From: Candidatus Saccharimonadota bacterium
GTDB taxonomy: Bacteria; Patescibacteriota; Saccharimonadia; Saccharimonadales; Saccharimonadaceae
Length of the DNA: 32,000 nucleotides
Assembly: GCA_016700015.1 (NCBI GenBank)
Contig: CP064995.1
Coordinates: 510,001-542,000 of the forward strand
Direction: 5' to 3'
Shown here piece after piece: positions 243 through 17,093 of this stretch. The position numbers and the translations under genes are program-made. Below the pieces are notes generated by a model. That model was not told the origin of the DNA. It saw only the letters and a list, made by a program, of their open reading frames with translations, and did not search any database. The first letter of the stretch is position 1. The number at the start of each line of letters is the position of its first letter.

Positions 243-271
243 TTGTGTTTTATGAATAAAGATAGTATAAT
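243..271 (+). promoter_or_regulatory. Putative sigma70-type promoter for the 321-1021 cassette
   Basis: TTGTGT (243-248), a 17-nt spacer, then TATAAT (266-271), in an AT-rich spacer. The leader of about 45 nt carries GAGGAG before the ATG at 321. Confidence 0.4.
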
Positions 272-320
272 ATTGCATGATAGGGTGCCGCTGGCGCTCT
301 CGTACCAGAGGAGTGTCCTC

Positions 321-830
321 ATGAACCGTACTCACAGCCCCTTCGCATGGCTGATCGGCCTACTAGCCGCCAGCTTCATCGTGTCAGGTGTGGCGACCGT
401 CATCGCCTCCCCCAGTGGCATCAGCGTGCTCATCATACTTTGCACTGGTTTTGCATGCGTGCTAGTGTGGGCGGTAAGTCTCGATTACTACCGCAAACCT
501 CGCCTACACACATCAATCATGACAGACTTGTGGGTGATTCGCAGAAACCCAACACTTCACAAGAACTTCACGCTGAGCGATCTGGCCGAGAGCGGCAATG
601 ACGTCGCCTACATGACCCTCAAGTCCGGTGCGTCGTATCGACTCGGGCCGGTGAGCACCCTGACTGACTTCACGGCACGCGTGGGTGACCTCGTGACCAT
701 CAAGCGCACGGGTGGCATTGTGACTGGTAACTGGAGGGCCGAGGTCATCTCGGTCGTGCCGGCCGAGCTGCTGCCGCTGGCAAAAGGAACGCCCGCGCCC
801 AGCCAAGCTCCACCCAAGGCCGCATCGTGA
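321..830 (+). CDS. Hypothetical membrane protein (2 TM hairpin plus C-terminal ~110-aa domain), GC-rich cassette
   Basis: Track ORF 213-830 trimmed to the ATG at 321 (MNRTHSPF...), with GAGGAG at 309-314. Two hydrophobic helices (FAWLIGLLAASFIVSGVATVIA, ISVLIILCTGFACVLVWAVSL) precede a soluble domain and a Pro/Ala-rich tail. Confidence 0.7.
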   Translation: MNRTHSPFAWLIGLLAASFIVSGVATVIASPSGISVLIILCTGFACVLVWAVSLDYYRKPRLHTSIMTDLWVIRRNPTLHKNFTLSDLAESGNDVAYMTLKSGASYRLGPVSTLTDFTARVGDLVTIKRTGGIVTGNWRAEVISVVPAELLPLAKGTPAPSQAPPKAAS

Positions 831-1021
831 TCTGGGTTATTGTCGGCCTGCTGGCAATCGTCGTTGGCGTCGTCCTCACCACGCACGGCTTCACCATGCA
901 CATGCTCGGCTCGGGCGGCGGAGATACGTTCTCCGACCTCGGCATGGGCAAGTGGGTCATGGTACTCGGGGTTGTCATTGCGGCAACCGGAGCATGGCTC
1001 ACCCTTGCTCACGTCGGCTAA
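827..1021 (+). CDS. Small hypothetical membrane protein (2 TM, 64 aa)
   Basis: The GTG start overlaps the upstream stop (GTGA at 827-830), which suggests translational coupling. The product has two hydrophobic helices and the same GC-rich composition as the upstream gene. Confidence 0.55.
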   Translation: MIWVIVGLLAIVVGVVLTTHGFTMHMLGSGGGDTFSDLGMGKWVMVLGVVIAATGAWLTLAHVG

Positions 1022-1069
1022 CCGACACTGGCGTCTGCGCGTTCACGCGTGCAGGCGCCGTTTTCATTT

Positions 1070-1078
1070 TGCTATAGT
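1070..1078 (+). promoter_or_regulatory. Extended -10 promoter (TGcTATAGT), leaderless configuration
   Basis: TGC followed by TATAGT (1073-1078), ending exactly 6 nt before the ATG at 1085. No usable SD spacing. Confidence 0.5.
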
Positions 1079-1084
1079 AGAGGT

Positions 1085-1492
1085 ATGTCGACACTATTTG
1101 ACCACATCGCCATATGGCTGCTCGATCTCGTCAGCAGTACCAGGCGTGTCGCAGGGCTTTACCTCGCCAATTTCATATTTTGTACGCTCGTGTATATGTT
1201 TGCCGAACATGTGAGTTTGTTCGACGCTATGTGGTGGTGCATTGTCACGTGGTTTACAGTAGGATACGGAGATAATATCCCGCACACAATAGAAGGTAAG
1301 TTATTTACGATGTATGCCATTATTACGTCGCATGCACTCATTGTGCTGATTACTGCTAACTTTGTGATAATGCTGGGCCGCTACCGCAATAAACGTCATG
1401 CCCACCGTTATGACTTTTGCAAAAAACACCGTGAAGCTCTGTCCGAATCAGTCACGTGTGAGGAATGTAACTCTCCGCTATCATTTTTCTAG
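1085..1492 (+). CDS. Minimal two-TM potassium channel (KcsA/Kcv-like pore only) with Cys/His-rich C-terminal tail
   Basis: The canonical K+ selectivity filter TVGYGD is encoded at 1256-1273. It is flanked by an outer helix (VAGLYLANFIFCTLVYMFAE), a pore helix (LFDAMWWCIVTWF) and an inner helix (KLFTMYAIITSHALIVLITANFVIML). There is no RCK or voltage-sensor domain. The start at 1085 is preferred over the GTG at 1049. Confidence 0.8.
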   Translation: MSTLFDHIAIWLLDLVSSTRRVAGLYLANFIFCTLVYMFAEHVSLFDAMWWCIVTWFTVGYGDNIPHTIEGKLFTMYAIITSHALIVLITANFVIMLGRYRNKRHAHRYDFCKKHREALSESVTCEECNSPLSFF

Positions 1493-1494
1493 CG

Positions 1495-2202
1495 CTAGAG
1501 TGTAATCAGTGTGCCAACTTGTTCGCCGGCCGCTGCTCGCGCTATATTGCCTTCGGTGAGCAGCGCACAAATAATCACTGGTTTTTTGTCTTCCATCGCA
1601 AGCCCAATAGCAGCCTTGTCCATAACAGCGATGTTGGGGTTGCTCAGTGCTTCTTGGTAGCTAATTTTGTCGAATTTTCGCGCAGATGAGTCTTTGGCAG
1701 GGTCGGCGTTGTACACACCATCGACTTTGGTCGTTTTTATAACGACATCGCACTTCATTTCGAGTGCTAAGCTCAGCGCCGCGGTATCAGTAGTGAGGAA
1801 TGGTCGGCCAATACCACCACCGACTATCACCACACGACCCTTGCCAAGATGGTGCTCAGCGCGGCGATACGTGTAGCGATCAATAAATTGTTCGACTGGT
1901 ACACTACTCAGCGCCACGGTCGGCACATGCATAGCGTTAAAGATATCACTTACCACCACGGCGTTCATAATCGTCGCGAGCATACCGGTGTTATGCGCTG
2001 TCACTTCGCCAATGCCGTGGCCCGCCAGCTGTGCCCCGCGAGCGTAGTTACCACCACCGACCATTACCACTACCTGCGTGCCATTTGTTAGCAGGGGACG
2101 GATTTGCTCGGCAATCCATTTTACCCGCTCGGCATCCACGCCACCCTGTAGATTACCCTGTAATTGTTCACCTGAAAGTTTGAGGAGAATACGCTTATAC
2201 AT
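1495..2202 (-). CDS. pyrH: UMP kinase
   Basis: 235 aa. The N-terminus MYKRILLKLSGEQLQG and the overall length and pattern (VVVMVGGGNYARG, GRVVIVGGGIGRPFLTTDTAAL) are typical of bacterial PyrH. Confidence 0.93.
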   Translation of the reverse strand: MYKRILLKLSGEQLQGNLQGGVDAERVKWIAEQIRPLLTNGTQVVVMVGGGNYARGAQLAGHGIGEVTAHNTGMLATIMNAVVVSDIFNAMHVPTVALSSVPVEQFIDRYTYRRAEHHLGKGRVVIVGGGIGRPFLTTDTAALSLALEMKCDVVIKTTKVDGVYNADPAKDSSARKFDKISYQEALSNPNIAVMDKAAIGLAMEDKKPVIICALLTEGNIARAAAGEQVGTLITL

Positions 2203-2208
2203 AGTCCC

Positions 2209-2217
2209 AGTATAGCA
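2209..2217 (-). promoter_or_regulatory. Extended -10 promoter (TGcTATACT) for pyrH, leaderless configuration
   Basis: On the minus strand, gTGcTATACT ends 6 nt before the pyrH ATG (2200-2202). Confidence 0.5.
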
Positions 2218-2245
2218 CTTGTAATAAGCATTTATCGTAATGACA

Positions 2246-2274
2246 TTGCCTTTGCATAGTTTTTATTGTATAAT
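2246..2274 (+). promoter_or_regulatory. Putative promoter for lipoprotein gene 2318
   Basis: TTGCCT (2246-2251), 17 nt, then TATAAT (2269-2274). The leader of about 40 nt carries GGGAG at 2304-2308. Confidence 0.45.
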
Positions 2275-2317
2275 GGTATTAGTTCTTCGACAACCAAGTG
2301 AACGGGAGTTGTGTCTT

Positions 2318-2830
2318 ATGTCCAAGTTCCTTCGAGTTTTATCTGCCCTCCTGGCTACAGCCAGTCTGGCTGCATGTAGCGACTCGCAGTCACGGTCGCC
2401 GCGAGTTGACATCGCGACTGGACAAACCAGCACTACCATCACACGTGTCGTGCTGATCGACGGCACCCCTTGTGCCGTCATCGACACCGCCTACTCGGCT
2501 GCCGTCGGCTGCGACTGGAACAGCCGCGAAGCCACCACGGGTACAACACCCGAAGGTAGCGGTACGACAAAGGTAACGCTGGTGGTCCTTTCAAACGGTG
2601 TGCGCTGTGCCGTCATGGACACCACCGCCAAGGCGCTGGACTGTGGCTGGGGCGCCAAGCACGGCGCTCCGTCGTACGAGCCGAAAGGCGAGCGAGGTAT
2701 TCGCGTCGACACCTTCCAGTTGGGAGGCGTGACCTGTGCTGTTATGGACGGAGTGGGCGACAAGGCCGGTACCAAAGCGCTCTCGTGCGGTAGCCCCGCC
2801 GAGACCCCTACGGTCAAAACCACTCCCTGA
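2318..2830 (+). CDS. Secreted lipoprotein with three tandem Cys-pair repeat modules (GC-rich cassette)
   Basis: Track ORF trimmed to MSKFLRVLSALLATASLAAC, a signal peptide with lipobox LAAC. It contains three ~28-aa repeats: ITRVVLIDGTPCAVIDTAYSAAVGCDW, KVTLVVLSNGVRCAVMDTTAKALDCGW and IRVDTFQLGGVTCAVMDGVGDKAGTKALSCG. Confidence 0.8.
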   Translation: MSKFLRVLSALLATASLAACSDSQSRSPRVDIATGQTSTTITRVVLIDGTPCAVIDTAYSAAVGCDWNSREATTGTTPEGSGTTKVTLVVLSNGVRCAVMDTTAKALDCGWGAKHGAPSYEPKGERGIRVDTFQLGGVTCAVMDGVGDKAGTKALSCGSPAETPTVKTTP

Positions 2831-2844
2831 CAGCATGTCAAGAA

Positions 2845-2920
2845 CCACATTGGCGAGGGGACAATCCCTCGCCAATGTGGCAAACATATTTTTATGCCCG
2901 TTTACGGGTGTTTTTTATAT
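2845..2920 (+). terminator. Intrinsic terminator(s) after the lipoprotein gene
   Basis: A perfect 15-bp stem, CCACATTGGCGAGGG (2845-2859) with CCCTCGCCAATGTGG (2866-2880), is followed by CAAACATATTTTTA. A second small hairpin CCCG-TTTA-CGGG (2897-2908) is followed by TGTTTTTTA. Confidence 0.75.
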
Positions 2921-2929
2921 TCCAATTAG

Positions 2930-2958
2930 TTGCATTATTTTTAAATAAATGATATAAT
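2930..2958 (+). promoter_or_regulatory. Putative promoter for gene 3016
   Basis: TTGCAT (2930-2935), 17 nt, then TGaTATAAT (-10 at 2953-2958). The leader carries AAAGGAG at 3002-3008. Confidence 0.5.
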
Positions 2959-3015
2959 TTTACATTAAGCCACGTGACTTGTCACGCTACGAACCTACCA
3001 TAAAGGAGTGCAGCC

Positions 3016-3552
3016 ATGCTTGACTACTTGCCTTGGTTCATCGATATGTCGAACCTCGAATACTGGGCCGTCGGCATCGTGGTGGCCGTATCGATTGTCA
3101 CATCGATTGTTTGCCTCTTCTGGCTCGGCTATCTGGTCTTCGAGGCCGGCTACTACGACGACAGCCTGCTGTGGCTAAAGCGGTTGCTCGCACTCATCGC
3201 GACGATCATCGCCATCTTCATGGTGCTTTCGGGTATCAAGTCGTACGGGCTGGCATCAGATCAATACGACTATCAAGGCGCGTACCTTGACTCATCAGTG
3301 AGTACGGTGAGCAGCCTGGCGATTGTTGTCCGTCAGCCTGGTGAAGGCGCAACGGTGCTGAAAGACGGGCGTGGACCGATTGAGGTTACGGTCGCCATCA
3401 AGGGCAACAAGGGCTCGATCTCAAGTAAGGTGTATCTGTGCCGCGCAACAGAATGCTCGGGCCTCACCGTCGGTCAGCCCATCGGCTGGCTGGTGTACCG
3501 CCCCTATGGAGATGCGACCTGGCACCTATTGCCGCCCGGCGCTTCGCGCTAG
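3016..3552 (+). CDS. Hypothetical membrane protein (2 TM plus C-terminal beta-rich domain), GC-rich cassette
   Basis: 178-aa ORF with a strong SD (AAAGGAG) 7 nt upstream. Two hydrophobic helices precede a ~95-aa domain ending ...GQPIGWLVYRPYGD, reminiscent of DUF3592-type domains (weak, by eye). Confidence 0.7.
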   Translation: MLDYLPWFIDMSNLEYWAVGIVVAVSIVTSIVCLFWLGYLVFEAGYYDDSLLWLKRLLALIATIIAIFMVLSGIKSYGLASDQYDYQGAYLDSSVSTVSSLAIVVRQPGEGATVLKDGRGPIEVTVAIKGNKGSISSKVYLCRATECSGLTVGQPIGWLVYRPYGDATWHLLPPGASR

Positions 3553-3560
3553 GCGACTCA

Positions 3561-3590
3561 CCCCCTCTTCGGAGGGGGCTATTTTATCTC
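3561..3590 (+). terminator. Intrinsic terminator of gene 3016-3552
   Basis: CCCCCTC-TTCG-GAGGGGG (3561-3578) followed by CTATTTTATCTC. Confidence 0.75.
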
Positions 3591-3598
3591 AATTTGAA

Positions 3599-3637
3599 GA
3601 GGGGTGGGTGACACACAATGTGCGTCACCCACCCCTC
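3599..3637 (-). terminator. Hairpin terminator candidate for minus-strand gene 3658-3954
   Basis: A perfect 14-bp stem, GAGGGGTGGGTGAC (3599-3612) with GTCACCCACCCCTC (3624-3637), starts 20 nt after the minus-strand stop. The downstream U-tract is only moderate (TCTTCAAATT). Confidence 0.5.
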
Positions 3638-3657
3638 AAGGGTGGAGCGGGTAGCGA

Positions 3658-3954
3658 TTAGCCGAGGACCTCGGCTGCCCACTGCTCGAGCAGGAAATCC
3701 TCGAACGGGCTATCGTGCAACGCCGCCTCGACGACAACCGACAGCCAGCCGACGGCCTCGTAGGCCTGGCGCGGCTTGTCGATGTCGATCCCGTCCTCAG
3801 TGGCGTAGGCCGCCTGGTTCAGCGCGTCACGCGCCATGGCCTCGGCCAGCCTGGCCGACAAGTCAATGGCCGTGCCGTCCGGCACGTGGCGCTGCAAGAA
3901 CGCCTGCAGACTAGCGGCGGCCTCGGCGATGCTCATCATCTTGGTCAGGTTCAC
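3658..3954 (-). CDS. Small acidic cytoplasmic hypothetical protein (98 aa), GC-rich cassette
   Basis: GTG start at 3952-3954 with GAAGGAG 7 nt upstream. No TM or signal peptide, helical and acidic sequence. It has its own consensus promoter and hairpin terminator. Confidence 0.65.
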   Translation of the reverse strand: MNLTKMMSIAEAAASLQAFLQRHVPDGTAIDLSARLAEAMARDALNQAAYATEDGIDIDKPRQAYEAVGWLSVVVEAALHDSPFEDFLLEQWAAEVLG

Positions 3955-4009
3955 GTGCGTGCTCCTTCTGTGTTCGCTCCTGCGGAGGTGCAGGAAGTCC
4001 TGATATACT

Positions 4010-4038
4010 ATTATACTCCGCTTTTGTTATTTTGTCAA
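4010..4038 (-). promoter_or_regulatory. Consensus sigma70-type promoter for 3658-3954 (minus strand)
   Basis: The minus strand reads TTGACA (4038-4033), 17 nt, then TATAAT (4015-4010). Both hexamers are perfect consensus. Confidence 0.65.
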
Positions 4039-4054
4039 TTTACTATAAATACTA

Positions 4055-4083
4055 TTGACACGTTTGTAAAAATTTGCCATAAT
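4055..4083 (+). promoter_or_regulatory. Near-consensus promoter for operon 4208-6266
   Basis: TTGACA (4055-4060), 17 nt, then TGcCATAAT (-10 at 4078-4083). It lies back-to-back with the minus-strand promoter, with the -35 boxes 16 bp apart. The leader is about 120 nt. Confidence 0.6.
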
Positions 4084-4207
4084 AGTTTTTAAGATCACAA
4101 GCTGCTGATCGGGAGGGCTCCCTAGGGAGTCTTTTCGAGTGCACGCCGTGCGATCATTGACAACCCACCGAAGAAGCAACGACTCGACCCCACGGAAAGG
4201 GGGAGCT

Positions 4208-5278
4208 ATGAAGCAGCGCATCCTCGCGGTGTTGCTTGCGGTGTTCGGCCTGTTCCTCACCACCACCCCGGCCCGTGCGGCCGATGTGGTGGACGAGGCC
4301 ATCAGTGCCCTGCAGTCCACGTCTGTGTACGTGGGCAAGGGCACGGAGCGCACCGACCAGAACAGCACCGCAAACATCAACCGCGTTCTTAAGGCGGGAG
4401 ATCACATCGTGATCGTCCTGCTCCCGAAGGGCGCGACCAAGCTGACCAATGACGAAGTGGCCGCCAAGCTGCTCAACTCCCTCAAGGAGCCAAGCATCCT
4501 GGGCCTGTACGTCAATGGTGTCTTCACAGGCCACTCAAACCGCATCCCCCAGGATGAGGCGAACAAGTTGGTCGCAAGTGCAAACGCAATTGCAACCGAC
4601 CCAACCGAGAGTGCAACAATATTCGTAAGACTGGTACACCAATACCAGGCCGCCCATCCCGAGCCGACCCCCACGGTCGGTACGACAGCCGGCGGTTCTA
4701 GTACCGGCATAAACCTGCTGATGATCCTCGGTCTGCTGTGTGCTGTTGGCGGTACCTTACTGGCGATCTATGCCAGTGGCCGCCAACAGCGCTTCTCCAC
4801 CACAGACGCCGACGCGCCCATCGAAATCCGCCAGTTCACCGAACTGGCGGACAAGCTGGCTGCAGACGTCGCACAGGTGACCAACCCGCGCGACCGCGAG
4901 AACATGAGCGTCATGCTGCGCACCCTGCGCGATGTCGTCGCCAAGACACGTCGCAAGCGGCCCCAGGTCGCCAAGGTGACCGCCAGCAACCTGGCGGAGC
5001 AGCTCAACATTATGCGCACCATTGTGGGTGGGTACCTGGACAACCAGCAGTACCCAAACCTGCGTGGCGCGCGCGAGCGTCAGTCCGGCTACAGCACAGC
5101 CTTCGGCAACTTCCGCACCTTCGCGGAGGACCGGATGGCCAACTTGTTGGCCGAAGACTACGACTCGCTTACGTTCGAGATCAACCGGTGGCGTCCCATG
5201 GACGATGCTGGTGTCCCGAGCTCGCTCGACCTCCCGACGAACAACCGTTCGTCGGGCATCCACCCGCAAGACCGATAG
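4208..5278 (+). CDS. Signal-peptide protein with extracytoplasmic N-domain, one TM, and helical cytoplasmic C-domain (hypothetical; N-domain possibly TPM/Rv1476-like)
   Basis: Track ORF trimmed to MKQRILAVLLAVFGLFLTTTPARA-AD (signal peptide), with AAAGGGGGA upstream. A mid-protein TM (INLLMILGLLCAVGGTLLAIYA) is present. The family assignment is only recollection of similar actinobacterial architectures. Confidence 0.7.
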   Translation: MKQRILAVLLAVFGLFLTTTPARAADVVDEAISALQSTSVYVGKGTERTDQNSTANINRVLKAGDHIVIVLLPKGATKLTNDEVAAKLLNSLKEPSILGLYVNGVFTGHSNRIPQDEANKLVASANAIATDPTESATIFVRLVHQYQAAHPEPTPTVGTTAGGSSTGINLLMILGLLCAVGGTLLAIYASGRQQRFSTTDADAPIEIRQFTELADKLAADVAQVTNPRDRENMSVMLRTLRDVVAKTRRKRPQVAKVTASNLAEQLNIMRTIVGGYLDNQQYPNLRGARERQSGYSTAFGNFRTFAEDRMANLLAEDYDSLTFEINRWRPMDDAGVPSSLDLPTNNRSSGIHPQDR

Positions 5279-5291
5279 AAAGAGGAATCCA

Positions 5292-6266
5292 ATGAACCTG
5301 AAGCGCATCGCTGCTACCGCAGCTGTTGTCGTGGGTCTCGGCATGGCCGCGGCCTGCAGCAGCCCGCCCGCCATCACCCCCACCTCCGCCTCGTGCGGAT
5401 TCGTGGTCGGAAGCGGTACGAACGGCGCGGACCAGGCGGTCCAGGGTGTCGTGTACCCGGGGCAGAAGCTCAGCATCGACACGCGTATCCAGGTGGTGAA
5501 GTATGTCCCGTGTAACCAACGGAACTACCTTGTCACCGACGGGACGCGCAAGAACGCCAACGACCAGGTGATCGGTGACACGTTCACCGGCATCGAGGCG
5601 TTCACCAAGGACGGCACCAAGGTTCTGGTGTATGTGGGCATGTACTGGACACCAAACCAGGACCGTGACGTCATGCTCAAGTCGTTCTTCCCTCTCTGTG
5701 ACAAGTACCAGTGCTTCTCTTCAGCGAGCCAGGATGGGCGTGGAGACGTCAACTCGTCGAGCAAGGGCTGGAACGCCATGTTGGGCGAAAACGTGCCCTT
5801 CGCCATCGGGTCCGTGCTGCGCACGAGCTTGAAAGAGATGGACGACAGTGTATGGAAGACTGGTGCGAACTGGTCGACCATCAACGCTTCTCTGGCAGAT
5901 GGATTCCAGCCGGCGTTCCGTAAGATGATCGGCGCTTCAAGCGACGTCATGTGTGGGAACGGTGAGACTAGCTACTGGACGGGCACGCCCGGCCAAGGCT
6001 CCTACACCTGTGGTAAGGTTCGGTTCGAGGTGACCAACGTCATCAACGCCGACCCGAACCAGCAGAAGCTGGCGAATGAGGAGAACGCCCAGAAGCTGGC
6101 TGAGGCCGCGAACGCTGCGCGCAAGCGCGCCGCCCTGGCGGCGTACGGCACACAAGCAGACTACTGGCTTGGGGTCCAGGACTCGATCCAGAAGTGTCAC
6201 GATGCCGGCGTCAACTGCACGGTCGTCGTTGGCAACGGTGTGAGCGTCAACCCCGCGGCCAAGTAG
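5292..6266 (+). CDS. Cys-rich lipoprotein, possibly SPFH/Band-7-like fold
   Basis: Trimmed to MNLKRIAATAAVVVGLGMAAAC (lipobox), with AGAGGA 6 nt upstream. The start is 13 nt after the upstream stop, so the two genes form an operon. The C-terminal VRFEVTNVINADPNQQKLANEENAQKLAEAANAARKRA resembles the end of SPFH domains plus a coiled-coil Ala/Gln-rich tail (by eye). Confidence 0.7.
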   Translation: MNLKRIAATAAVVVGLGMAAACSSPPAITPTSASCGFVVGSGTNGADQAVQGVVYPGQKLSIDTRIQVVKYVPCNQRNYLVTDGTRKNANDQVIGDTFTGIEAFTKDGTKVLVYVGMYWTPNQDRDVMLKSFFPLCDKYQCFSSASQDGRGDVNSSSKGWNAMLGENVPFAIGSVLRTSLKEMDDSVWKTGANWSTINASLADGFQPAFRKMIGASSDVMCGNGETSYWTGTPGQGSYTCGKVRFEVTNVINADPNQQKLANEENAQKLAEAANAARKRAALAAYGTQADYWLGVQDSIQKCHDAGVNCTVVVGNGVSVNPAAK

Positions 6267-6287
6267 TTCGCTACACGGTCGCAACCA

Positions 6288-6341
6288 GGGTCGTCCTCCG
6301 TTCGGATTCATCCGAGCGGGGGCGACCCCTCTTTTTATTTC
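6288..6341 (+). terminator. Intrinsic terminator of operon 4208-6266
   Basis: A long imperfect hairpin, GGGTCGTCCTCCGTTCGGA-TTCA-TCCGAGCGGGGGCGACCC, pairs with G-U wobbles on the plus-strand RNA. It is followed by CTCTTTTTATTT. Confidence 0.7.
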
Positions 6342-6348
6342 ACGGTAT

Positions 6349-6377
6349 TTGACATTTATATAATTTATTGCTATAAT
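6349..6377 (+). promoter_or_regulatory. Consensus promoter for gene 6413
   Basis: TTGACA (6349-6354), 17 nt, then TGcTATAAT (-10 at 6372-6377). A second TATAAT sits inside the spacer (6359-6364). Confidence 0.65.
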
Positions 6378-6412
6378 AATATATAGGGAAACTTCTAGCA
6401 AAGGAGTAGGGA

Positions 6413-6859
6413 ATGACCGTCGTCAAAATCGTCGTCAAGAGGTGCTGGCTAGACTGGGCGTGGGTAATCGCCACGTTCATCGGCTGGGAACTCAGTGTGC
6501 GCTACGCTGAACAGCTGCTTGGTGGCAGCAGTGTGGCCGGCTTCATCGCAGATGCCATACTGTACACCACCTGCGTGGTGCGTGGCGTGATCGCACTCGA
6601 TCGCACCATGTTTGCGATCGTCTACGAACCACGCCAGCTGACCGTCACGGTGACGGGCAGTAAGCTTGCCACCAAGGGCAGTAGGGTGAGCTACGAGTAC
6701 CACTTTGATGGTGGCGTCGTACGAGCACCAGCGATTTCGACCGATCGTGCCTACCCGGGTGACACCGTGTCATTCTGGTACCGGCCGATCGACTTGATCG
6801 AGGGCCTCAAGGTCACCATTTACGCCCGCGCCTGGGGACATGCAGTCACCAGTGGTTAA
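6413..6859 (+). CDS. Hypothetical membrane protein (2 TM plus DUF3592-like C-domain), GC-rich cassette
   Basis: AAAGGAG sits 7 nt upstream of the ATG. The C-domain SRVSYEYHFDGGVVRAPAISTDRAYPGDTVSFWYRPIDL matches my memory of the DUF3592 pattern (Y-x-Y-x-x-x-G ... G-D-x-V-x-h-x-Y-x-P). Confidence 0.7.
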   Translation: MTVVKIVVKRCWLDWAWVIATFIGWELSVRYAEQLLGGSSVAGFIADAILYTTCVVRGVIALDRTMFAIVYEPRQLTVTVTGSKLATKGSRVSYEYHFDGGVVRAPAISTDRAYPGDTVSFWYRPIDLIEGLKVTIYARAWGHAVTSG

Positions 6860-6872
6860 TACCAGGCTCTTT

Positions 6873-6919
6873 CGCCGCTCCAATCCCGCACATGTGGGCG
6901 AGGAGCGGCGCTTCATTTT
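6873..6919 (+). terminator. Intrinsic terminator of gene 6413-6859
   Basis: CGCCGCTCC (6873-6881) pairs with GGAGCGGCG (6902-6910), with inner pairing CCCGCACA/TGTGGGCG. It is followed by CTTCATTTT. Confidence 0.65.
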
Positions 6920-6923
6920 GCGC

Positions 6924-6929
6924 TATACT
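6924..6929 (+). promoter_or_regulatory. -10 box (TATACT) for the exonuclease gene, leaderless configuration
   Basis: TATACT ends 6 nt before the ATG at 6936. There is no SD. Confidence 0.4.
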
Positions 6930-6935
6930 AGCTAT

Positions 6936-7856
6936 ATGAAACTTTATTCGTGGAATGTTAATGGTATTAGGGCCGTGCTGAGCAAAGGCTTGCTGCAGCA
7001 ATTCATCGCCGAACATGACCCCGACATACTATGCCTACAAGAAACCAAAGCCGAGCGCGGGCAGTTTGAGATTGATTTTCCCCAGTACCACGAGCATTTT
7101 TTCAGCGCCGTCAAGAAAGGCTACTCTGGCACAGCAATTTTCTCCAAGGCAAAACCGCTCAGATATATCGATGGCTTCCCAGATGAAATTATCAAAAAAT
7201 TTGGTGTGACCGGCGATAGCTACGGCGACCCAAATGCCGAAGGGCGCGTGATAGCCGCTGAGTTTGCCGACTACTGGGTGGTAACCTGCTATACACCAAA
7301 CTCAAAAGGCGACTTGTCGCGGCTTAGCCTGCGCTATGACAAGTGGGACAGGGCAGTCCTGGCGTATTTGCAGCAGCTCGAAAACGGATCATTTCTCGCA
7401 AAACTTCAAGAAAGTGCTGGCTTAGATGAAGTGCAAGGCGCAGCCGAGAAACGGACTGAGCCGTATTTGACATACGGCTCAGGAGTATCGCAGACGGCAA
7501 CGCAGCAATTCGCTAAGCCAGTACTGTATTGTGGTGATATGAACGTGGCGCACCAAGAAATCGACCTAGCAAACCCAAAACCAAATGTCGGCAAGCACGG
7601 GTTTACCAACGAGGAGCGCGAACGCTTTCAAGATTACTTGGACGCCGGTTTCGTCGATACCTTTCGTGCCGCCCATCCCGACAAAACCGAAGCCTACACC
7701 TGGTGGACACACTGGGCCAATGCCCGGGCACGCAATGTTGGCTGGCGGATTGATTATTGGCTGGCCAGCAAAACTATTGCGCCAAAGGTCAAAAACCCAC
7801 AAATTCACGCCACCGTCATGGGTAGCGACCACTGCCCGGTGAGTATAGAGCTATGA
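6936..7856 (+). CDS. xth: Exodeoxyribonuclease III / AP endonuclease (ExoA/Xth family) with an internal ~44-aa insertion
   Basis: Trimmed to MKLYSWNVNGIRA. Other family motifs seen are ILCLQETK, GYSGTAIFSK, CGDMNVAHQEIDL, WRIDYWL and GSDHCPV. Residues ~150-193 (nt 7383-7514) have no counterpart in the canonical ~250-270-aa enzymes as I remember them. Confidence 0.9.
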   Translation: MKLYSWNVNGIRAVLSKGLLQQFIAEHDPDILCLQETKAERGQFEIDFPQYHEHFFSAVKKGYSGTAIFSKAKPLRYIDGFPDEIIKKFGVTGDSYGDPNAEGRVIAAEFADYWVVTCYTPNSKGDLSRLSLRYDKWDRAVLAYLQQLENGSFLAKLQESAGLDEVQGAAEKRTEPYLTYGSGVSQTATQQFAKPVLYCGDMNVAHQEIDLANPKPNVGKHGFTNEERERFQDYLDAGFVDTFRAAHPDKTEAYTWWTHWANARARNVGWRIDYWLASKTIAPKVKNPQIHATVMGSDHCPVSIEL

Positions 7857-7868
7857 TATGATAAATTC

Positions 7869-8003
7869 ATGACGAATACGAAGCTCGACACCTACGCCGC
7901 CGAAATGGCCGCGATGCAACACAAGATCGACCGACTTGAACGCATGATTGACTACCTGGCAAAAAAGGCTGGCGTTAGCCGCGCCGTACTAGAATCCCTC
8001 TAA
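7869..8003 (+). CDS. Possible small ORF (44 aa, helical/coiled-coil-like)
   Basis: Not in the track. The translation is MTNTKLDTYAAEMAAMQHKIDRLERMIDYLAKKAGVSRAVLESL with stop TAA at 8001-8003. It starts 12 nt after the xth stop. No clear SD, so this is speculative. Confidence 0.3.
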   Translation: MTNTKLDTYAAEMAAMQHKIDRLERMIDYLAKKAGVSRAVLESL

Positions 8004-8030
8004 GCCCCACGGCGTACATCATCACTCAAT

Positions 8031-8059
8031 TAGACATGCTTTGTTAAGTGTGATATAAT
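8031..8059 (+). promoter_or_regulatory. Promoter for HAD gene, leaderless configuration
   Basis: TAGACA (8031-8036), 17 nt, then TGaTATAAT (-10 at 8054-8059). The -10 ends 8 nt before the ATG at 8068. Confidence 0.55.
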
Positions 8060-8067
8060 ATGTTGTA

Positions 8068-8799
8068 ATGACTACGCAAAAATTCGCAGCTTTTGATATT
8101 GACGGAACGCTCTTTCGGAGCGGTCTTTACCGTGAAGTCAGTTACGAACTGACCAAAATGGGCAAAGTCCCCAAGGAAATATCTGAAGCACTTACAGTCA
8201 AACACCGCGAATATCGTGACCGCCTGCACGGCAATGCATTTGAAGAGTTCGAGCGCGTACTCGTTAGTGAATTTGATGCCCTCACAACACACATAAAAGT
8301 AGCTGACTACGACGAAGCTGTGGCGAGGGTGCTGAGCAAAAAAGCTGAAAACGTGTACGTTTACACCCGCGACCTCATACGCAAGCTCAAAGACGAAGGC
8401 TATTTTCTTATCGCGATTAGCGGCTCCCAGATCGAGCTTGTCGAGCCATTTGCCATTAAATACGGCTTTGACGCATGGGTGGGGCAGCAGTGGGAACGCG
8501 GTGATGAATTTTTTACCGGCGCCATTGTCAAAACTCACACCGGCAAGGATACAATCCTCAAGCGGATGATGAAAGAGCATAATCTGACGCTAACAGACAG
8601 CATCGCTGTCGGCGATAGCAATGGCGATGTCGGCATGCTCGGAATGGTTGATCGCCCTATTGCATTTAACCCAACATTCGAACTCTATGACACGGCAATT
8701 GAACGGGGGTGGGATATCGTAATCGAGCGCAAAAACATCATCTATACTCTTGCTAAACAACATGGCAAATACGTGTTGGCCAGCGCTCAACCACATTAA
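8068..8799 (+). CDS. HAD-superfamily hydrolase (subfamily IB, phosphoserine-phosphatase-like)
   Basis: Motif I FDIDGTLF, motif II ISGS, and motif IV GDSNGDVGML, with a cap domain between motifs I and II. Confidence 0.85.
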   Translation: MTTQKFAAFDIDGTLFRSGLYREVSYELTKMGKVPKEISEALTVKHREYRDRLHGNAFEEFERVLVSEFDALTTHIKVADYDEAVARVLSKKAENVYVYTRDLIRKLKDEGYFLIAISGSQIELVEPFAIKYGFDAWVGQQWERGDEFFTGAIVKTHTGKDTILKRMMKEHNLTLTDSIAVGDSNGDVGMLGMVDRPIAFNPTFELYDTAIERGWDIVIERKNIIYTLAKQHGKYVLASAQPH

Positions 8800-8855
8800 C
8801 ATCTGTCAAGAGTTCATAAAAGTACTCACTCATTACATATGACATCAGCCAACTA

Positions 8856-8884
8856 TTGACTTTATTTATAATTTGTACTATAAT
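8856..8884 (+). promoter_or_regulatory. Consensus-like promoter for lipoprotein gene 8936
   Basis: TTGACT (8856-8861), 17 nt, then TATAAT (8879-8884). A second TATAAT lies in the spacer (8867-8872). Confidence 0.6.
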
Positions 8885-8935
8885 ACTATTTAGGACATGG
8901 AGCAACCGTTCCGTGCGCACCAAGTGGAAGAGAGT

Positions 8936-9196
8936 ATGGTAATGCGTCGTCGTATCGCAATGATCCCTGTCGTTTTCGTCGCTACCCTTGGCAGCCTGGC
9001 CGCCTGCGCCACCGGGAGTGGTACGCCCAGCTCGCCTGTCACCGCCAACCCGGATTACGTCAGCTGGCGCACATTCGATGTCAACGGCACGCCACTTTTG
9101 TGCGCGTACTACGACCGCGGCATCAGCTGCGACTGGGTCGACTATCACCTCAGGAACGGTGATCTGGCGCGGCCCAGCTCGACCGCCAAGCCGTAA
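8936..9196 (+). CDS. Small lipoprotein with one copy of the Cys-pair module (paralogous to the repeats in 2318-2830)
   Basis: Trimmed to MVMRRRIAMIPVVFVATLGSLAAC (lipobox); an alternative ATG is at 8942. The module WRTFDVNGTPLLCAYYDRGISCDW matches the G-T-P-C-A-x-x-D ... C-D-W pattern of the 2318 protein. Confidence 0.7.
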   Translation: MVMRRRIAMIPVVFVATLGSLAACATGSGTPSSPVTANPDYVSWRTFDVNGTPLLCAYYDRGISCDWVDYHLRNGDLARPSSTAKP

Positions 9197-9209
9197 TCCT
9201 TCACCCCGA

Positions 9210-9252
9210 CCCCGCGCCTCCCACACCCGGGAGGCGCGGGGTCGCTTCATTT
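9210..9252 (+). terminator. Intrinsic terminator of gene 8936-9196
   Basis: CCCCGCGCCTCC (9210-9221) pairs with GGAGGCGCGGGG (9230-9241) in a perfect 12-bp stem, followed by TCGCTTCATTT. Confidence 0.7.
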
Positions 9253-9810: not shown

Positions 9811-10829
9811 TACGCAACTTGCTGACTCGGACTGGCCTGCCATGTAGTGGGTCGACGATTCCGTACTGTGCGCAGCACCCGGTGGCGGCTATACAGTGCT
9901 CGAAATGACACCGTATGCAGCCCAAGTGTCACCTTTGAACCAGCGTCGATCTTTTCTGCGTCGCCATCAGTATGTAGATAGGTTTCTTGGAGCGGTATTA
10001 GCTGTTTTACCTGACCCGGCTGCACAACTGTATGCTCTGGTGGCGGTAACCAGGGCTGCGACATGAGGCGCACGATATACGGAACAACTTCAAGCGGTGA
10101 GCGACTGTGTAGCTCTGTATAGAATGCCTTGTGGTCGGCAAGCTCGACAGGAGGGTGTAAATACTGAGCTACCACGCCGCTATTAGCAATCGTGGCATCA
10201 AGAAGCGAATACACCTCACCGTGGCATTCCACTGGAAAAGTTTGTACATTTTTTAGCGTCCAGGGTAGTGTACTAAGACCATATATGTCGCGCACCCACG
10301 AAACATCATAACCAGGCCGACCACGAAAACTAGGCGATGCTATGTAGTGAGCGGTCGTCGCCATCGCTCCTATACCACTGTAAAGCGCACTCAATCGCTC
10401 AATCCTCCGCCCCTCGTATTCATAGGTTGTGCGTAGCGGCACGATGTCGACCATCGGCGCTTCTTTAATAATTTTCGACGGCTGCGCTAACATATGACCA
10501 CCGTGCAGCTGATTCGCCAGGTCATTACGATAGCCGCCCGGCAGGGGTAATAAGGTAGCATGATGAGCTGCTACCGTAGGGTCGGCCAGTGCTTCTACCG
10601 CAGTACGAGCCGTGCCGTCGCCGCCCGCCGTCACTACTACATCGCCGTAGCGCAGCGCGGCTTTTAACATTTGCGTCGTATCAGAAGGAGACGGGTAAGT
10701 TGCAAGTTCAATTACCCGGCTTCCAAAGTTCTCACGAATATCATCAATTTGCACCCCGACTGTTTCGCTGCGCGTGCTCACGGGGTTGGCAAGCACCACC
10801 ACTCGTTCAAAAGAATTCTTACTTGTCAC
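9807..10829 (-). CDS. Diacylglycerol/lipid kinase family protein (YegS/BmrU-like)
   Basis: The GGDGT motif (VVTAGGDGTARTAV) is preceded by a Rossmann-like N-terminus (VVVLANPVS). GTG start at 10827-10829. Confidence 0.8.
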   Translation of the reverse strand: MTSKNSFERVVVLANPVSTRSETVGVQIDDIRENFGSRVIELATYPSPSDTTQMLKAALRYGDVVVTAGGDGTARTAVEALADPTVAAHHATLLPLPGGYRNDLANQLHGGHMLAQPSKIIKEAPMVDIVPLRTTYEYEGRRIERLSALYSGIGAMATTAHYIASPSFRGRPGYDVSWVRDIYGLSTLPWTLKNVQTFPVECHGEVYSLLDATIANSGVVAQYLHPPVELADHKAFYTELHSRSPLEVVPYIVRLMSQPWLPPPEHTVVQPGQVKQLIPLQETYLHTDGDAEKIDAGSKVTLGLHTVSFRALYSRHRVLRTVRNRRPTTWQASPSQQVAY

Positions 10830-10835
10830 GTTAAC

Positions 10836-10857
10836 CTAGTATACACCTGTATACTAG
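10836..10857. promoter_or_regulatory. Divergent pair of TATACT -10 boxes embedded in an inverted repeat (CTAGTATA-CACCTG-TATACTAG)
   Basis: The plus-strand TATACT (10850-10855) ends 6 nt before the ATG at 10862. The minus-strand TATACT (10843-10838) ends 8 nt before the GTG at 10829. The whole intergenic region is only 32 bp. Confidence 0.5.
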
Positions 10858-10861
10858 AGCT

Positions 10862-11668
10862 ATGGATATGAGCTATTGGAAGCAGCAAGCACCAGATAAG
10901 CCGCTGTTTCCCGACATAGAGTGGAGCAAGCCCGAACAGCGCTCCCAGCGCGGCAAGCTTGGCATTATTGGCGGCAACAAGCTTGGTTTTGCAGGGGTGG
11001 CCGAAAGTTACGCAACTGCGCTGGCCACCGGAGCAGGTGAAGTCCGCGTACTCTTGCCTGATGTGCTACGCAAGGCTATTCCGGCTAGCATGACCGACGT
11101 CGTGTTTGCTGCCAGCAACCCAAGCGGCAGCCTGGCGCGTGAAGCACTCGTCGACATGCAAGCCCTGGCGCAGTGGAGTGGCGTACTACTACTGTGTGGC
11201 GACGCTGGGCACAACAGTGAAACCGCAATTGTATACGAAGACCTGCTGCGTACCTATAGCGGCCCGCTTGTGCTCACGCGCGATGCAATCGACCTGGTGA
11301 AAAACAGTAGCGAAGCCCTGGTCAACAGGCCAAACACGCTACTAGTAGTGTCGTTTGCACAGCTGCAAAAGCTGTTTCAGAGCGTCTACTATCCCAAAAT
11401 CCTCACTTTTAGCATGCAGCTACTGCAGCTGGTCGAGGCTGTCCATAAATTTACGATTACGTACCCTATTACCATCGCCGTTTTGCACCGCGACACACTG
11501 GTCGTTGCCCACGCAGGGCAAGTGACGAGCACCAAATGGGACAGCCCTATGGCCATCTGGCGCGGCACTACCGCCGCCCGCGCTGCTACTTATTGGCTCT
11601 GGACGCCCAGGCAACTACTAGAAGCGGTAAGCACCAGTCTCATTGCGTTAATATGCCATAAAATATAA
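10862..11668 (+). CDS. YjeF C-terminal-like / carbohydrate-kinase-fold protein (possible NAD(P)HX dehydratase homolog, motifs partly degenerate)
   Basis: RGKLGIIGGNKLGFAGVAESYATALATGAGEVRVLLPD resembles the N-terminal signature of YjeF_C proteins. I could not find the C-terminal GxGD nucleotide motif. Confidence 0.5.
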   Translation: MDMSYWKQQAPDKPLFPDIEWSKPEQRSQRGKLGIIGGNKLGFAGVAESYATALATGAGEVRVLLPDVLRKAIPASMTDVVFAASNPSGSLAREALVDMQALAQWSGVLLLCGDAGHNSETAIVYEDLLRTYSGPLVLTRDAIDLVKNSSEALVNRPNTLLVVSFAQLQKLFQSVYYPKILTFSMQLLQLVEAVHKFTITYPITIAVLHRDTLVVAHAGQVTSTKWDSPMAIWRGTTAARAATYWLWTPRQLLEAVSTSLIALICHKI

Positions 11669-16444: not shown

Positions 16445-16457
16445 GGGTAAGAAGCAT

Positions 16458-16877
16458 ATGAAACACAGCAAGCAACAAGTCAGCGCCGTCCATTACGCGA
16501 TATTTATCACACTCATGACCGTGCTATTTTTCTCGACAGCGTTTTTTATATTTGCAATGAGCACTTATCCTCCATCCGCTCCTGGCCCACAAACATTCTG
16601 GGGTAACCCTATCGTTGTTGCTATTTGTACTTTACTCGCTTTTCCTTTTATTATGATGATGCTTTTGCCTTTATATGAATCAATTTTTTATCACAGATAC
16701 ACCGGGCAAAGTAGGGGGCAAGACTGGTTATACTCCGCGCTATTCATAAGTTTTATTGTTGATATTGTGTTCGTTTTCTCATACAACACTAGTAGCAGCT
16801 TGTTGCAGTCGATGATCGGGCTAGTGATCTTGCAGGCCATCACGCCGCTCGCAATAGCCTTCAGTCGCATGGACTAG
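16458..16877 (+). CDS. Hypothetical polytopic membrane protein (4 TM)
   Basis: Trimmed to MKHSKQQVS. Four hydrophobic segments. It starts 13 nt after the upstream stop. Confidence 0.6.
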   Translation: MKHSKQQVSAVHYAIFITLMTVLFFSTAFFIFAMSTYPPSAPGPQTFWGNPIVVAICTLLAFPFIMMMLLPLYESIFYHRYTGQSRGQDWLYSALFISFIVDIVFVFSYNTSSSLLQSMIGLVILQAITPLAIAFSRMD

Positions 16878-16982
16878 TGGGACCGGGGGAACACAATCGG
16901 GGTAACTGGGCGTCACTAGCAACGGTATCCAGGATCGGCCGGCCAGCGCCGGGCCATCTGACGCCTGAGCGCACACTCTACT

Positions 16983-17004
16983 CCCACCCCATACCAGGGG
17001 TGGG
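16983..17004 (+). terminator. GC hairpin (terminator-like) at the end of a GC-rich non-coding stretch
   Basis: CCCACCCC-ATACCA-GGGGTGGG. The downstream T-tract is poor (CTATTCAAT). Confidence 0.3.
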
Positions 17005-17017
17005 CTATTCAATAGTA

Positions 17018-17046
17018 TTGACTTTTATTATAATATGTGCTATAAT
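17018..17046 (+). promoter_or_regulatory. Consensus promoter for acidic-protein gene 17094
   Basis: TTGACT (17018-17023), 17 nt, then TGcTATAAT (-10 at 17041-17046). A second TATAAT lies in the spacer (17029-17034). Confidence 0.65.
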
Positions 17047-17093
17047 GAAATTCAGGAATAATTCCCACTACTGAAAAGAAAAGGGGATAGCAC

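Follow-up and report, generated by a model that had tools for sequence, protein, structure and literature searches.

A GC-rich gene slot between pyrH and xth and a conserved three-gene module in a Candidatus Saccharibacteria genome

The locus described here raises the question of why a bacterial chromosome of intermediate GC content carries, among its housekeeping genes, a set of short genes whose third codon positions are far richer in G and C than those of their neighbors. The stretch analyzed (the window, 32,000 nucleotides, positions 510,001 to 542,000 of contig CP064995.1) has a mean GC content of 53.4% and belongs to a closed 1,011,181-bp Candidatus Saccharibacteria metagenome-assembled genome (MAG), in which its proteins are QQS21445-QQS21465 with locus tags IPM09_028xx-029xx. 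An earlier note on this DNA, made from the sequence alone, had pointed to eight GC-rich units; the composition contrast stood up to computation, but the units comprise ten open reading frames (ORFs), since 4208-6266 holds two genes and 321-1021 two overlapping ORFs. The explanation that we prefer, and to which we assign about an even chance, is that these genes belong to a replacement-type flexible genomic island (fGI) fed by a high-GC, phage-linked gene pool. The ten ORFs, with their GC content and their GC content at third codon positions (GC3), are as follows:

c1a, 321-830, plus strand, GC 0.60, GC3 0.71
c1b, 827-1021, plus strand, GC 0.62, GC3 0.77
c2, 2318-2830, plus strand, GC 0.62, GC3 0.68
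c3, 3016-3552, plus strand, GC 0.58, GC3 0.73
c4, 3658-3954, minus strand, GC 0.67, GC3 0.90
c5a, 4208-5278, plus strand, GC 0.62, GC3 0.79
c5b, 5292-6266, plus strand, GC 0.62, GC3 0.82
c6, 6413-6859, plus strand, GC 0.59, GC3 0.73
c7, 8897/8936-9196, plus strand, GC 0.62, GC3 0.74
c8, 17094-17501, plus strand, GC 0.65, GC3 0.83

Composition, signals and genomic slot of the GC-rich genes

Computed per gene, the ten ORFs have a GC content of 0.58-0.67 and a GC3 of 0.68-0.90, with no overlap with the 24 other genes of the window (GC 0.43-0.56, GC3 0.47-0.655). The enrichment reported earlier is thus real, although the range given then (57-78%) overstated its top end at gene level. A Mann-Whitney comparison of the two sets yields U=240 of 240 with p=3e-6, a value that is descriptive only, since the set was picked by GC. 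The peaks of 60-67% GC in a 300-bp sliding profile coincide with the units of the earlier note. Mean GC3 is 0.77 in the GC-rich ORFs vs 0.57 in the others, with first codon positions equal (0.60 vs 0.58) and a small surplus at second positions (0.48 vs 0.42); when third positions are pooled, C makes up 46% and G 32% of them in the former, against 30% C and 26% G in core genes. The excess ends at the ORF boundaries: most spacers are AT-rich (GC 0.36-0.47), and two spacers that contain GC-rich terminator hairpins have a GC content of 0.58-0.59. The tetranucleotide z-score signature, normalized for base composition, is unremarkable (r=0.51 between cassettes and core; 0.60 ± 0.06, with a minimum of 0.48, for size-matched core subsamples), so that the anomaly in composition lies essentially in the third positions of codons. 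Accessory genes that are GC-rich relative to the host genome are the reverse of the usual pattern.

Motif scans bore out the near-consensus promoters in AT-rich spacers and the Shine-Dalgarno (SD) leaders that had been described for these units. A perfect TTGACA-17-TATAAT promoter precedes c4 (4038-4010, minus strand) and c6 (6349-6377), 11/12-match promoters precede c5a (4055-4083) and c7 (8856-8884), and a 10/12-match promoter-like site precedes c2 (2246-2274); the promoters of c4 and c5a are back-to-back consensus sites inside 4010-4083. SD motifs lie upstream of c1a, c2, c3, c4, c5a, c5b, c6 and c8. Several of the hairpin terminators proposed earlier were confirmed, with hairpins at 2894-2911, 3561-3578, 6318-6330 and 9207-9244; the statement that none follows 321-1021 proved wrong, as a 14-bp-stem hairpin with a T-run lies 3' of position 1021, at 1029-1060. 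An own promoter and terminator are combined with deviant composition in c2, c3, c4, c5a-c5b (bicistronic), c6 and c7. The products were likewise correctly foreseen as envelope or small acidic proteins, with LAAC lipoboxes in c2 and c7, several predicted proteins with two transmembrane segments, and isoelectric points (pI) of 4.3 for c4 and 4.4 for c8.

Most of the GC-rich genes lie between or close to two core genes that serve as anchors for comparison:

pyrH (UMP kinase), 1495-2202, minus strand, left core anchor; Pfam AA_kinase 1e-31; annotated QQS21448.1
xth (exodeoxyribonuclease III family), 6936-7856, plus strand, right core anchor; Pfam Exo_endo_phos 4e-27

The comparison set consisted of 80 xth-centered loci from other Saccharibacteria species, with at most 10 kb of flank per side; all counts over the 80 loci are counts among the matches listed, and the nearest species possibly lie outside this set. 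Extra contigs, such as L091-L095, were recruited through the 90% cluster of pyrH (loci and contigs are designated by L numbers throughout). In 20 of the 80 loci pyrH adjoins xth, with a gap of 20-92 bp in 12 of these and of 0.37-2.3 kb in the other 8; in the window 4.7 kb separate the two genes, and L094 has a gap of about 5 kb and L106 one of 2.9 kb. Searches of the 80 loci by tblastn, phmmer or family hidden Markov models (HMMs) gave zero detections for c1b to c8, and one weak relative for c1a.

Closer relatives fill the slot in different ways. In L092, L094 and L095, whose pyrH is 92% identical to that of the window, c3, c4, c5a, c5b and c6 are collinear between pyrH and xth; an unrelated 135-aa gene replaces c2 in L092 and L094, and the whole HAD-c7-Nudix stretch is missing from L094 and L095, the contigs of which reach past xth. 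L091 and L093 carry the same pyrH with a wholly different slot content, including other single genes with a GC3 of 0.85-0.88. The slot is therefore variable, its content differing among close relatives. A same-species strain (L102/L103, 97% nucleotide identity) has every cassette that falls within its contig span, the position of c8 being outside that span. The GC-rich genes are thus genus-level residents and not strain-level novelties, and the comparison supports their accessory status. The presence/absence comparison that had been proposed as a check accordingly gave a mixed answer, as the genes are accessory but c3, c4, c5a, c5b and c6 keep their order in genus-level relatives. Conserved synteny with unchanged composition, which the earlier note regarded as speaking against foreign origin, was found in part: c4, c5a and c5b have a similarly high GC3 in genus-level relatives.

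The same comparisons bear on whether the pattern could be an artefact of chimeric assembly or binning, or of spurious ORFs within GC-rich non-coding DNA. The source is a MAG, which would leave room for this, but assemblies made independently, from other samples and with other pipelines, show the same arrangement (L102/L103 at 97% nucleotide identity, and L092/L094/L095), the orthologs show ratios of nonsynonymous to synonymous substitution (dN/dS) of 0.12-0.60, and c5a and c5b give confident structure models. We consider an artefact highly improbable.

The c4-c5a-c5b module

Three of the ten ORFs, c4, c5a and c5b, are one conserved module, found mostly beside xth and sometimes with TelA, and so do not conform to the earlier picture of single-gene cassettes acquired one by one. 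The features of the module in the window and its arrangements elsewhere are as follows:

c4 unit, 3599-4038, minus strand: promoter 4038-4010, SD motif, ORF 3954-3658, hairpin 3637-3599; divergent from c5a
c5a unit, 4055-5278, plus strand: promoter 4055-4083, 125-nt leader, ORF 4208-5278
c5b, 5292-6330, plus strand: ORF 5292-6266, terminator 6318-6330; putatively co-transcribed with c5a
L094: c4, c5a and c5b co-occur
L106: pyrH, c4-like gene, c5a, c5b, xth
L105: smpB, c4-like gene (minus strand), c5a (PF10112), TelA (PF05816), c5b-like gene, xth
L107: xth, DAGK, g10862-like gene, c4-like gene, c5a, c5b; module about 2.3 kb downstream of xth
L090: c5a, TelA, c5b paralog, c5b
L081, L084 and L086: c5a-c5b pair

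Homologs of c4 lie divergently upstream of c5a in L094 (81% identity), L105 (54%, phmmer 4e-27), L107 (49%) and L106 (43%). In L106 and L105 the module sits between pyrH or smpB and xth even though pyrH of these genomes is only 66% identical to that of the window. TelA is absent from the window, where c5a is directly followed by c5b. An exhaustive HMMER search of 1.84 billion proteins returned about 152 representatives of the c5a family, and an indexed set of 5.8 billion proteins contained 10 homologs of c5b, on whose contigs a c5a homolog lies immediately upstream.

The module also extends into phages. c5b matches PHROG 31970 at 2e-29, and has relatives with 28-31% identity in the Mycobacterium phages Myrna (gp223), Phabba and ScoobyDoobyDoo. 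In Myrna, gp222, annotated as 'membrane protein', matches the c5a HMM at 4.8e-9 and gp223 matches the c5b HMM at 1.5e-92 (30% identity) in the same gene order and with a GC3 of 0.90, so that the gene pair is common to the mycobacteriophage and the window. Myrna differs in that gp222 is shorter (234 aa), that no c4-like gene was noted, and that the genome is that of a 164-kb lytic myovirus. Further homologs occur on the IMG/VR contig L097 and on the phage-like contig L088.

These matches bear on the source proposed in the earlier note, namely repeated acquisition from high-GC actinobacterial hosts; a link to Actinobacteria does exist through the Mycobacterium phages (PHROG 31970, Myrna gp222), but no homolog in an actinobacterial genome was identified. 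In its strict form, with eight or more independent, recent single-gene insertions directly from such hosts, this scenario accounts for a GC3 of 0.7-0.9 resembling that of actinobacterial coding DNA and for LAAC-type lipoproteins; moreover, the weak relatives of the N-terminal domain of c5a are extremely rich in Gly, Ala, Arg and Pro, as is typical of very high-GC organisms, and cultivated Saccharibacteria grow on Actinobacteria (PMC10633639). It conflicts with the findings that c4, c5a and c5b are one module, that c3 to c6 are collinear in genus-level relatives, and that none of the cassettes is a strain-level novelty, all those within the contig span of the 97%-identical strain being present there. 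The named homologs are only phage genes at about 30% identity, with no actinobacterial genomic homolog identified, and the units have SD leaders and AT-rich promoters of the sigma-70 consensus type, which high-GC actinobacterial DNA would not be expected to bring. We therefore regard direct insertion from the hosts as improbable.

Structure prediction gives the module a membrane-associated character. c4 is predicted to be a small acidic cytoplasmic protein (98 aa, pI 4.3). c5a (356 aa) is modeled by AlphaFold2 (AF2), at a mean predicted local distance difference test score (pLDDT) of 84, with a signal peptide, an extracytoplasmic alpha/beta domain, a transmembrane helix at residues 168-193 and a cytoplasmic four-helix bundle. 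Nine of 50 members of the c5a family match PF10112 (XpaC / Halogen_Hydrol), the best at 1.4e-6, and the ortholog in L105 has a precomputed PF10112 match and is followed by TelA; the cytoplasmic bundle appears to be distantly related to XpaC. The outer domain gave one Foldseek match, to 2kpt (TMt 0.59, prob 0.93, E 0.56), which we take to be a TPM domain, and no match to PF04536 or any other Pfam family.

For c5b, a 324-aa lipoprotein with an AAAC lipobox, a family-invariant Cys22 and several further invariant cysteines, the AF2 model (pLDDT 75) shows an SPFH/Band-7-like alpha/beta fold followed by a long helix at 255-304. Foldseek returned 22 viral Band-7/SPFH matches, the best at 1e-11, and 44 PDB matches at or below 1e-3, among them HflK/C (7vhq 2e-7), prohibitin, erlin, flotillin and stomatin at 2e-7 to 1e-4; TM-scores are only 0.35-0.5. 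Sequence searches of c5b gave no Pfam match at E <= 0.1, PF01145 (Band_7) included, and no NCBIfam match. The protein is thus predicted to be a lipid-anchored, disulfide-rich protein with an SPFH/Band-7 fold. It would resemble the SPFH/Band-7 scaffolds (HflK/C, stomatin, flotillin, prohibitin) in its order of an alpha/beta domain and a long helix and in its predicted membrane tether; it differs in having a lipobox anchor instead of a transmembrane helix, in its richness in conserved cysteines and in the absence of a PF01145 match. Phage-encoded Band-7 proteins, to judge from the viral Foldseek matches, are common.

Two known systems are close in kind. In Enterococcus faecium, both the binding of daptomycin and the phospholipid microdomains of the membrane are influenced by XpaC together with TelA (PMC6811118), and the known function of XpaC-TelA modules of Firmicutes has to do with phospholipid organization and tolerance of membrane-active agents (PMC6811118). 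The likeness lies in an XpaC-type cytoplasmic helical protein beside TelA in L105 and L090; the window copy differs in that TelA was lost or never present, and c5a differs in its added signal peptide and extracytoplasmic alpha/beta domain, its marginal similarity to PF10112, and its constant partners, a lipoprotein of SPFH fold and a small acidic gene in divergent orientation. In envelope-stress operons, proteins with Band-7 and TPM domains are found repeatedly as partners (PMC11237479), an example being the phage-shock-protein-type (PSP-type) ydjFGHL operon of B. subtilis (PMC11237479); here c5b is paired with a bitopic protein whose outer domain may be TPM-like, and the window module differs in having no PspA or NfeD partner.

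On these likenesses, c5a would span the membrane, pairing outside with an SPFH-type scaffold formed by c5b and contacting TelA and/or c4 inside; c5b would be lipid-anchored on the outer face of the membrane and stabilized by disulfides. The module may then be an envelope-integrity or membrane-organization device of the XpaC-TelA and Band-7/TPM kind. A bolder proposal, which we consider unlikely, is that environmental Saccharibacteria and large phages of actinobacterial hosts share a trans-envelope module, and that the persistent GC3 of 0.8-0.9 in episymbiont genomes of 51-55% GC records continuing gene flow into the episymbiont from the virome of its host. If it were true, the module might protect the membrane of the epibiont at the host interface or against phage, and a linked oddity would be that the imported genes are SD-led and the native unit-opening genes leaderless-looking.

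Two neighborhoods of the module are recorded as side observations. In L107 (L107:1-3205) a vWA-TerF-like protein and a VWA lipoprotein lie near it, tellurite-resistance-type neighbors that echo the TelA association. A cellular-type FtsH is encoded about 3 kb from the c5a-c5b pair of L084 (L084:4087-5985); HflK/C regulate FtsH, which may be relevant, or the proximity may be a coincidence.

Exchange and origin of the island genes

Three kinds of observation point to recombinational exchange of the island genes. First, synonymous difference (pS) between the window and L094 is saturated in core genes (0.67-0.78), including Kch and pyrH adjacent to c1a (0.67-0.71), and is lower in c1a (0.28), c4 (0.44) and c5a (0.45). 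Second, identity between the window and the same-species strain is mosaic: 2250-6000 is 99-100% identical, with nucleotide identities of 95% for pyrH, 94% for xth and 85% for c6. Third, alleles appear to be replaced: in a comparison of genomes that share 67% identity in c5a, the adjacent c5b has an identity of 35%, and the branching of c5b in a neighbor-joining tree does not follow the relatedness of core genes. The mosaic identity suggests a recombination mechanism for the island; Saccharibacteria are naturally competent (PMC10633639), and replacement flexible islands are diversified via homologous recombination (PMC4033161).

The GC3 of the module relative to its surroundings varies widely:

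L105: module 0.79-0.91, immediate core flanks 0.42-0.51
L094: module 0.79-0.86, flanks about 0.6
L081, L098, L099 and L101 (genomes of 41-46% GC): c5b 0.61-0.67, flanks/neighbors 0.23-0.41
L106: module 0.58-0.70, similar background (nearly ameliorated)
L084, L086, L088, L097 and Myrna (contigs of 59-66% GC): module GC3 matches the background

In nearly every Saccharibacteria genome examined, the GC3 of the module exceeds that of the host, by very different margins. Translation and ribosomal genes adjoining the module in low-GC Saccharibacteria have a background GC3 of 0.24-0.35, and the high GC3 thus does not reflect a codon preference of genes with strong expression.

The main rival to an external source is that these are native, fast-evolving surface genes in which GC3 is kept high by GC-biased gene conversion in a recombination hot spot or by synonymous selection (mRNA stability or expression), a possibility that we take seriously but find doubtful. 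It corresponds to the alternative named in the earlier note, an accessory envelope repertoire under distinct mutational pressure. It is consistent with the synteny of the module at pyrH/smpB-xth in several lineages, with a GC3 of 0.8-0.9 that persists although core synonymous sites are saturated between lineages, with the clear recombination mosaicism of the island, with a tetranucleotide signature not significantly different from that of the core, and with the restriction of the effect to genes for envelope or small proteins. However, the excess stops at ORF ends beside spacers of 36-47% GC, which regional gene conversion would not spare, and in L106 the same slot holds the module at a GC3 close to background. 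The ordinary GC3 of the translation genes beside the module in low-GC hosts, the compositional equilibrium of the homologs in phage or phage-like DNA of 59-66% GC, and a synonymous divergence of the island genes that is lower, not higher, than that of their flanks also argue against gene-specific forces acting on native genes.

A high-GC, phage-linked source is favored because the GC excess is bounded by the ORFs, because the homologs are at compositional equilibrium in high-GC phage DNA, because translation genes beside the module in low-GC hosts lack the bias, and because each unit comes with a consensus promoter, an SD leader and a terminator of its own, whereas the core genes look leaderless. 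On the replacement-island reading, the ancestral pyrH-xth junction and a few neighboring junctions would act as slots for short, autonomously transcribed envelope-protein genes. The GC3 excess would travel with the genes, which would stem from a phage-linked mobile pool of higher GC and still be exchanged with it; after entry, homologous recombination in the conserved flanking sequences would carry them from one Saccharibacteria strain or species to another. The differing margins may then represent amelioration at different stages in different lineages, combined with allele replacement.

Several results weigh against this reading. No mobility machinery, tRNA, att-like sequence or flanking repeat was found at the island edges, and plasmids yielded no homolog of c5a or c5b. 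The presence of the module in the same slot despite a pyrH identity of 66% could reflect long vertical residence, and in some such lineages GC3 is still 0.8-0.9, which simple amelioration does not predict unless alleles were repeatedly replaced. Two of the high-GC contigs, L084 and L086, have no taxonomic assignment, and the FtsH of L084 argues for a cellular genome. The composition check proposed in the earlier note gave a divided result, as GC and GC3 set the ten ORFs apart from the 24 other window genes but the normalized tetranucleotide signature does not clearly separate cassettes from core. A clade-wide trend to GC3-rich accessory genes was rejected in a comparison of 1383 ORFs from the 80 Saccharibacteria loci, in which orphans are merely more heterogeneous in GC3, in both directions. 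In addition, c5a of the window has no Pfam match at E <= 0.1, PF10112 included, and its outer domain is at most weakly suggested to be TPM-like, by a single weak Foldseek match. Finally, six of the ten ORFs have no homolog outside the genus.

The replacement fGIs of aquatic prokaryotes (Lopez-Perez et al. 2014, PMC4033161) provide the closest parallel. Like them, the island occupies the same slot between core genes with a content that varies among relatives, encodes exposed envelope products, lacks an integrase or att sites and shows signs of homologous recombination at its conserved flanks (PMC4033161). The window island differs in being tiny (about 5 kb plus satellites), in consisting of mono- or bicistronic units rather than glycosylation clusters, in being GC3-rich where atypical islands are usually AT-rich, and in that c4, c5a and c5b are conserved rather than replaced. 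In kind, the locus is a well-behaved flexible island with moron-like units, and not a new kind of system. A phage moron, in the concept of Hendrix and Juhala, is an autonomous promoter-SD-ORF-terminator unit of deviant composition lying between adjacent genes. The window units share this autonomous layout, the deviant composition and the insertion between genes; they differ in standing on a cellular chromosome amid housekeeping genes and not within a phage or prophage, and matches to phage protein families are confined to c5b, where the match is strong, and c2/c7, where it is weak.

The moron-like layout would also be expected if the GC-rich genes were the surviving morons of a degraded Saccharibacteria prophage or integrative element, an explanation to which the PHROG matches of two gene families and the presence of c5b on phage and phage-like contigs also lend weight. 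Such a remnant has low probability, since the island and its borders lack integrase, structural and replication genes, tRNAs and att-like repeats, the units are spread over 17 kb with the core genes pyrH, xth, HAD, Nudix and gltX between them and do not form one block, the remaining eight ORFs have no other phage match, and the PADLOC search returned only a sub-threshold Cas8b match for c5a (E 0.0016, 16 bits). Anti-phage defense was also considered and rejected, as this match is not credible and no other was obtained. The Pfam scans of the locus detected no recombinase or integrase domain. The only tRNAs of the window are at 12567 and 22454, and its longest direct repeat measures 22 nt and is intragenic, flanking repeats of at least 23 nt being absent. 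The island accordingly differs from an integrase-mediated island, integrative and conjugative element or prophage in lacking integrase, tRNA target and flanking direct repeats, and its units differ from integron cassettes in having no shared repeat family (attC), no integrase and promoters of their own.

The locus offers a concrete, comparable hot spot (pyrH-xth) and an uncharacterized, conserved membrane module of three to four genes. In tiny genomes with an attached way of living, the few accessory genes that are kept and exchanged are the best candidates for host-interface or survival functions, and if the phage link represents real gene flow, the evolution of the episymbiont would be tied to the virome of its host.

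Single units and neighboring genes

The units outside the module are simpler in structure:

c2 unit, 2246-2911, plus strand: promoter-like site 2246-2274, ORF 2318-2830, hairpins 2845-2880 and 2894-2911
c3 unit, 3016-3578, plus strand: ORF 3016-3552, terminator 3561-3578
c6 unit, 6349-6859, plus strand: perfect promoter 6349-6377, SD motif, ORF 6413-6859
c7 unit, 8856-9244, plus strand: promoter 8856-8884, ORF 8936-9196 (alternative start 8897), 16-bp perfect hairpin 9207-9244

To judge from their sequences, c1a/b, c2, c3, c6, c7 and c8 are species- or genus-restricted ORFans with predicted surface, membrane or acidic products; the lineage-restricted status of c1a, c2, c3, c4, c6, c7 and c8 is based on 90% clusters, about 108 loci, and phage and IMG/VR scans. 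c1a is predicted to be a 169-aa membrane protein with two N-terminal transmembrane segments and a C-terminal soluble domain (82% amino acid identity in L091-L095, 30% in L078), and c1b, a 64-aa ORF with two predicted transmembrane segments that overlaps the c1a stop by 4 nt in a different frame, was found only in the same-species strain L102. c3 (178 aa, two transmembrane segments and a C-terminal domain) has 64% amino acid identity to its counterparts at the same position in L092 and L094, with a dN/dS of 0.12; c6 (148 aa, a membrane protein with a C-terminal soluble domain) has 50% in L094. Paralogy between c3 and c6 was not detectable in a direct comparison.

c2, a 170-aa lipoprotein with a LAAC lipobox and three Cys-pair repeats, was found only in L102/L103, matches PHROG 3641 weakly (0.0024) and has no IMG/VR match. 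c7 is a small lipoprotein, also with a LAAC lipobox, whose one Cys-pair repeat resembles those of c2; it matches PHROG 3641 at 8.6e-6, is present in L103 and shows weak paralogy to c2 (E 4e-4). c8, a 135-aa acidic ORFan (pI 4.4) led by an SD motif just upstream of gltX, is the single member of its 90% cluster, with no homolog in any fetched locus, phages or IMG/VR. No Pfam, NCBIfam, PADLOC or PDB match was obtained for c1a, c1b, c2, c3, c6, c7 or c8, nothing credible for c2, c4 and c8 in NCBIfam, PADLOC, Rfam and PDB sequence searches, no PHROG match for c1a, c1b, c3, c4, c5a, c6 or c8, and no match in phage tblastn searches with the concatenated cassettes and with c7.

Isolated GC3-rich genes (GC3 0.72-0.88) stand among ordinary core genes in relatives too, at L091:566-1210, L091:2701-3228 and L105:5101-5937, and upstream of xth in L005, L006, L008, L019, L054 and L058. 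Most are predicted to encode membrane or secreted proteins (DUF350, a VWA lipoprotein, alpha/beta-hydrolase-like proteins, ORFans).

The right anchor and its surroundings show variation of their own. Core-gene starts were derived from alignments and motifs; that of xth is likely the ATG at 6936 rather than 6840, as relatives align from residue 27-33 or so and a -10-like TATACT ends 6 nt 5' of 6936. The window xth product, at about 306 aa, is longer than those of L094, L105, L106 and L107 (264-277 aa), and its Pfam alignment covers 295 residues for a 225-position profile, indicating a lineage-specific internal insertion; in the N-terminal part of the gene, identity between the window and the same-species strain drops locally to 86%. 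Right after xth, the same-species strain carries an 808-bp two-gene insertion of ordinary GC content that is absent from the window (7857-7878 against L102:12924-13847 / L103:5976-6899), encoding a 180-aa protein with no Pfam match and a 112-120-aa coiled-coil DUF2730-like protein. An AT-rich ORFan directly upstream of c8 (16428-16877, GC 0.43, no Pfam match) has a homolog in one of the 80 loci, and the starts of g15221 and gltX are about 0.6-1.7 kb closer in several relatives, which suggests a second small variable slot (window 16428-17093).

Unit-opening core genes look leaderless, with a -10-like hexamer (TATACT, TATAAT, TATAGT or TACAAT) ending about 6-9 nt 5' of the start codon; they are Kch (1085), pyrH (2202, minus strand), xth (6936), HAD (8068), DAGK (10829, minus strand), g10862 (10862), PEGA (15370, minus strand), gltX (17581) and the response regulator (21722). 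SD leaders are found instead in the GC-rich cassettes and in operon-internal genes. A literature search for leaderless mRNAs in Saccharibacteria turned up no paper. About 32 bp separate DAGK (minus strand) from the divergent g10862 (plus strand) (10829-10862), and the palindromic TAGTATACA..TGTATACTA between them gives each a -10-like box. At the far end of the window, 24144-32000 on the minus strand is a run of large same-strand genes, a fused NlpC/P60 and M23 peptidase (24144-25616) and then four proteins of 360-507 aa with no Pfam match, which could be an envelope or secretion operon.

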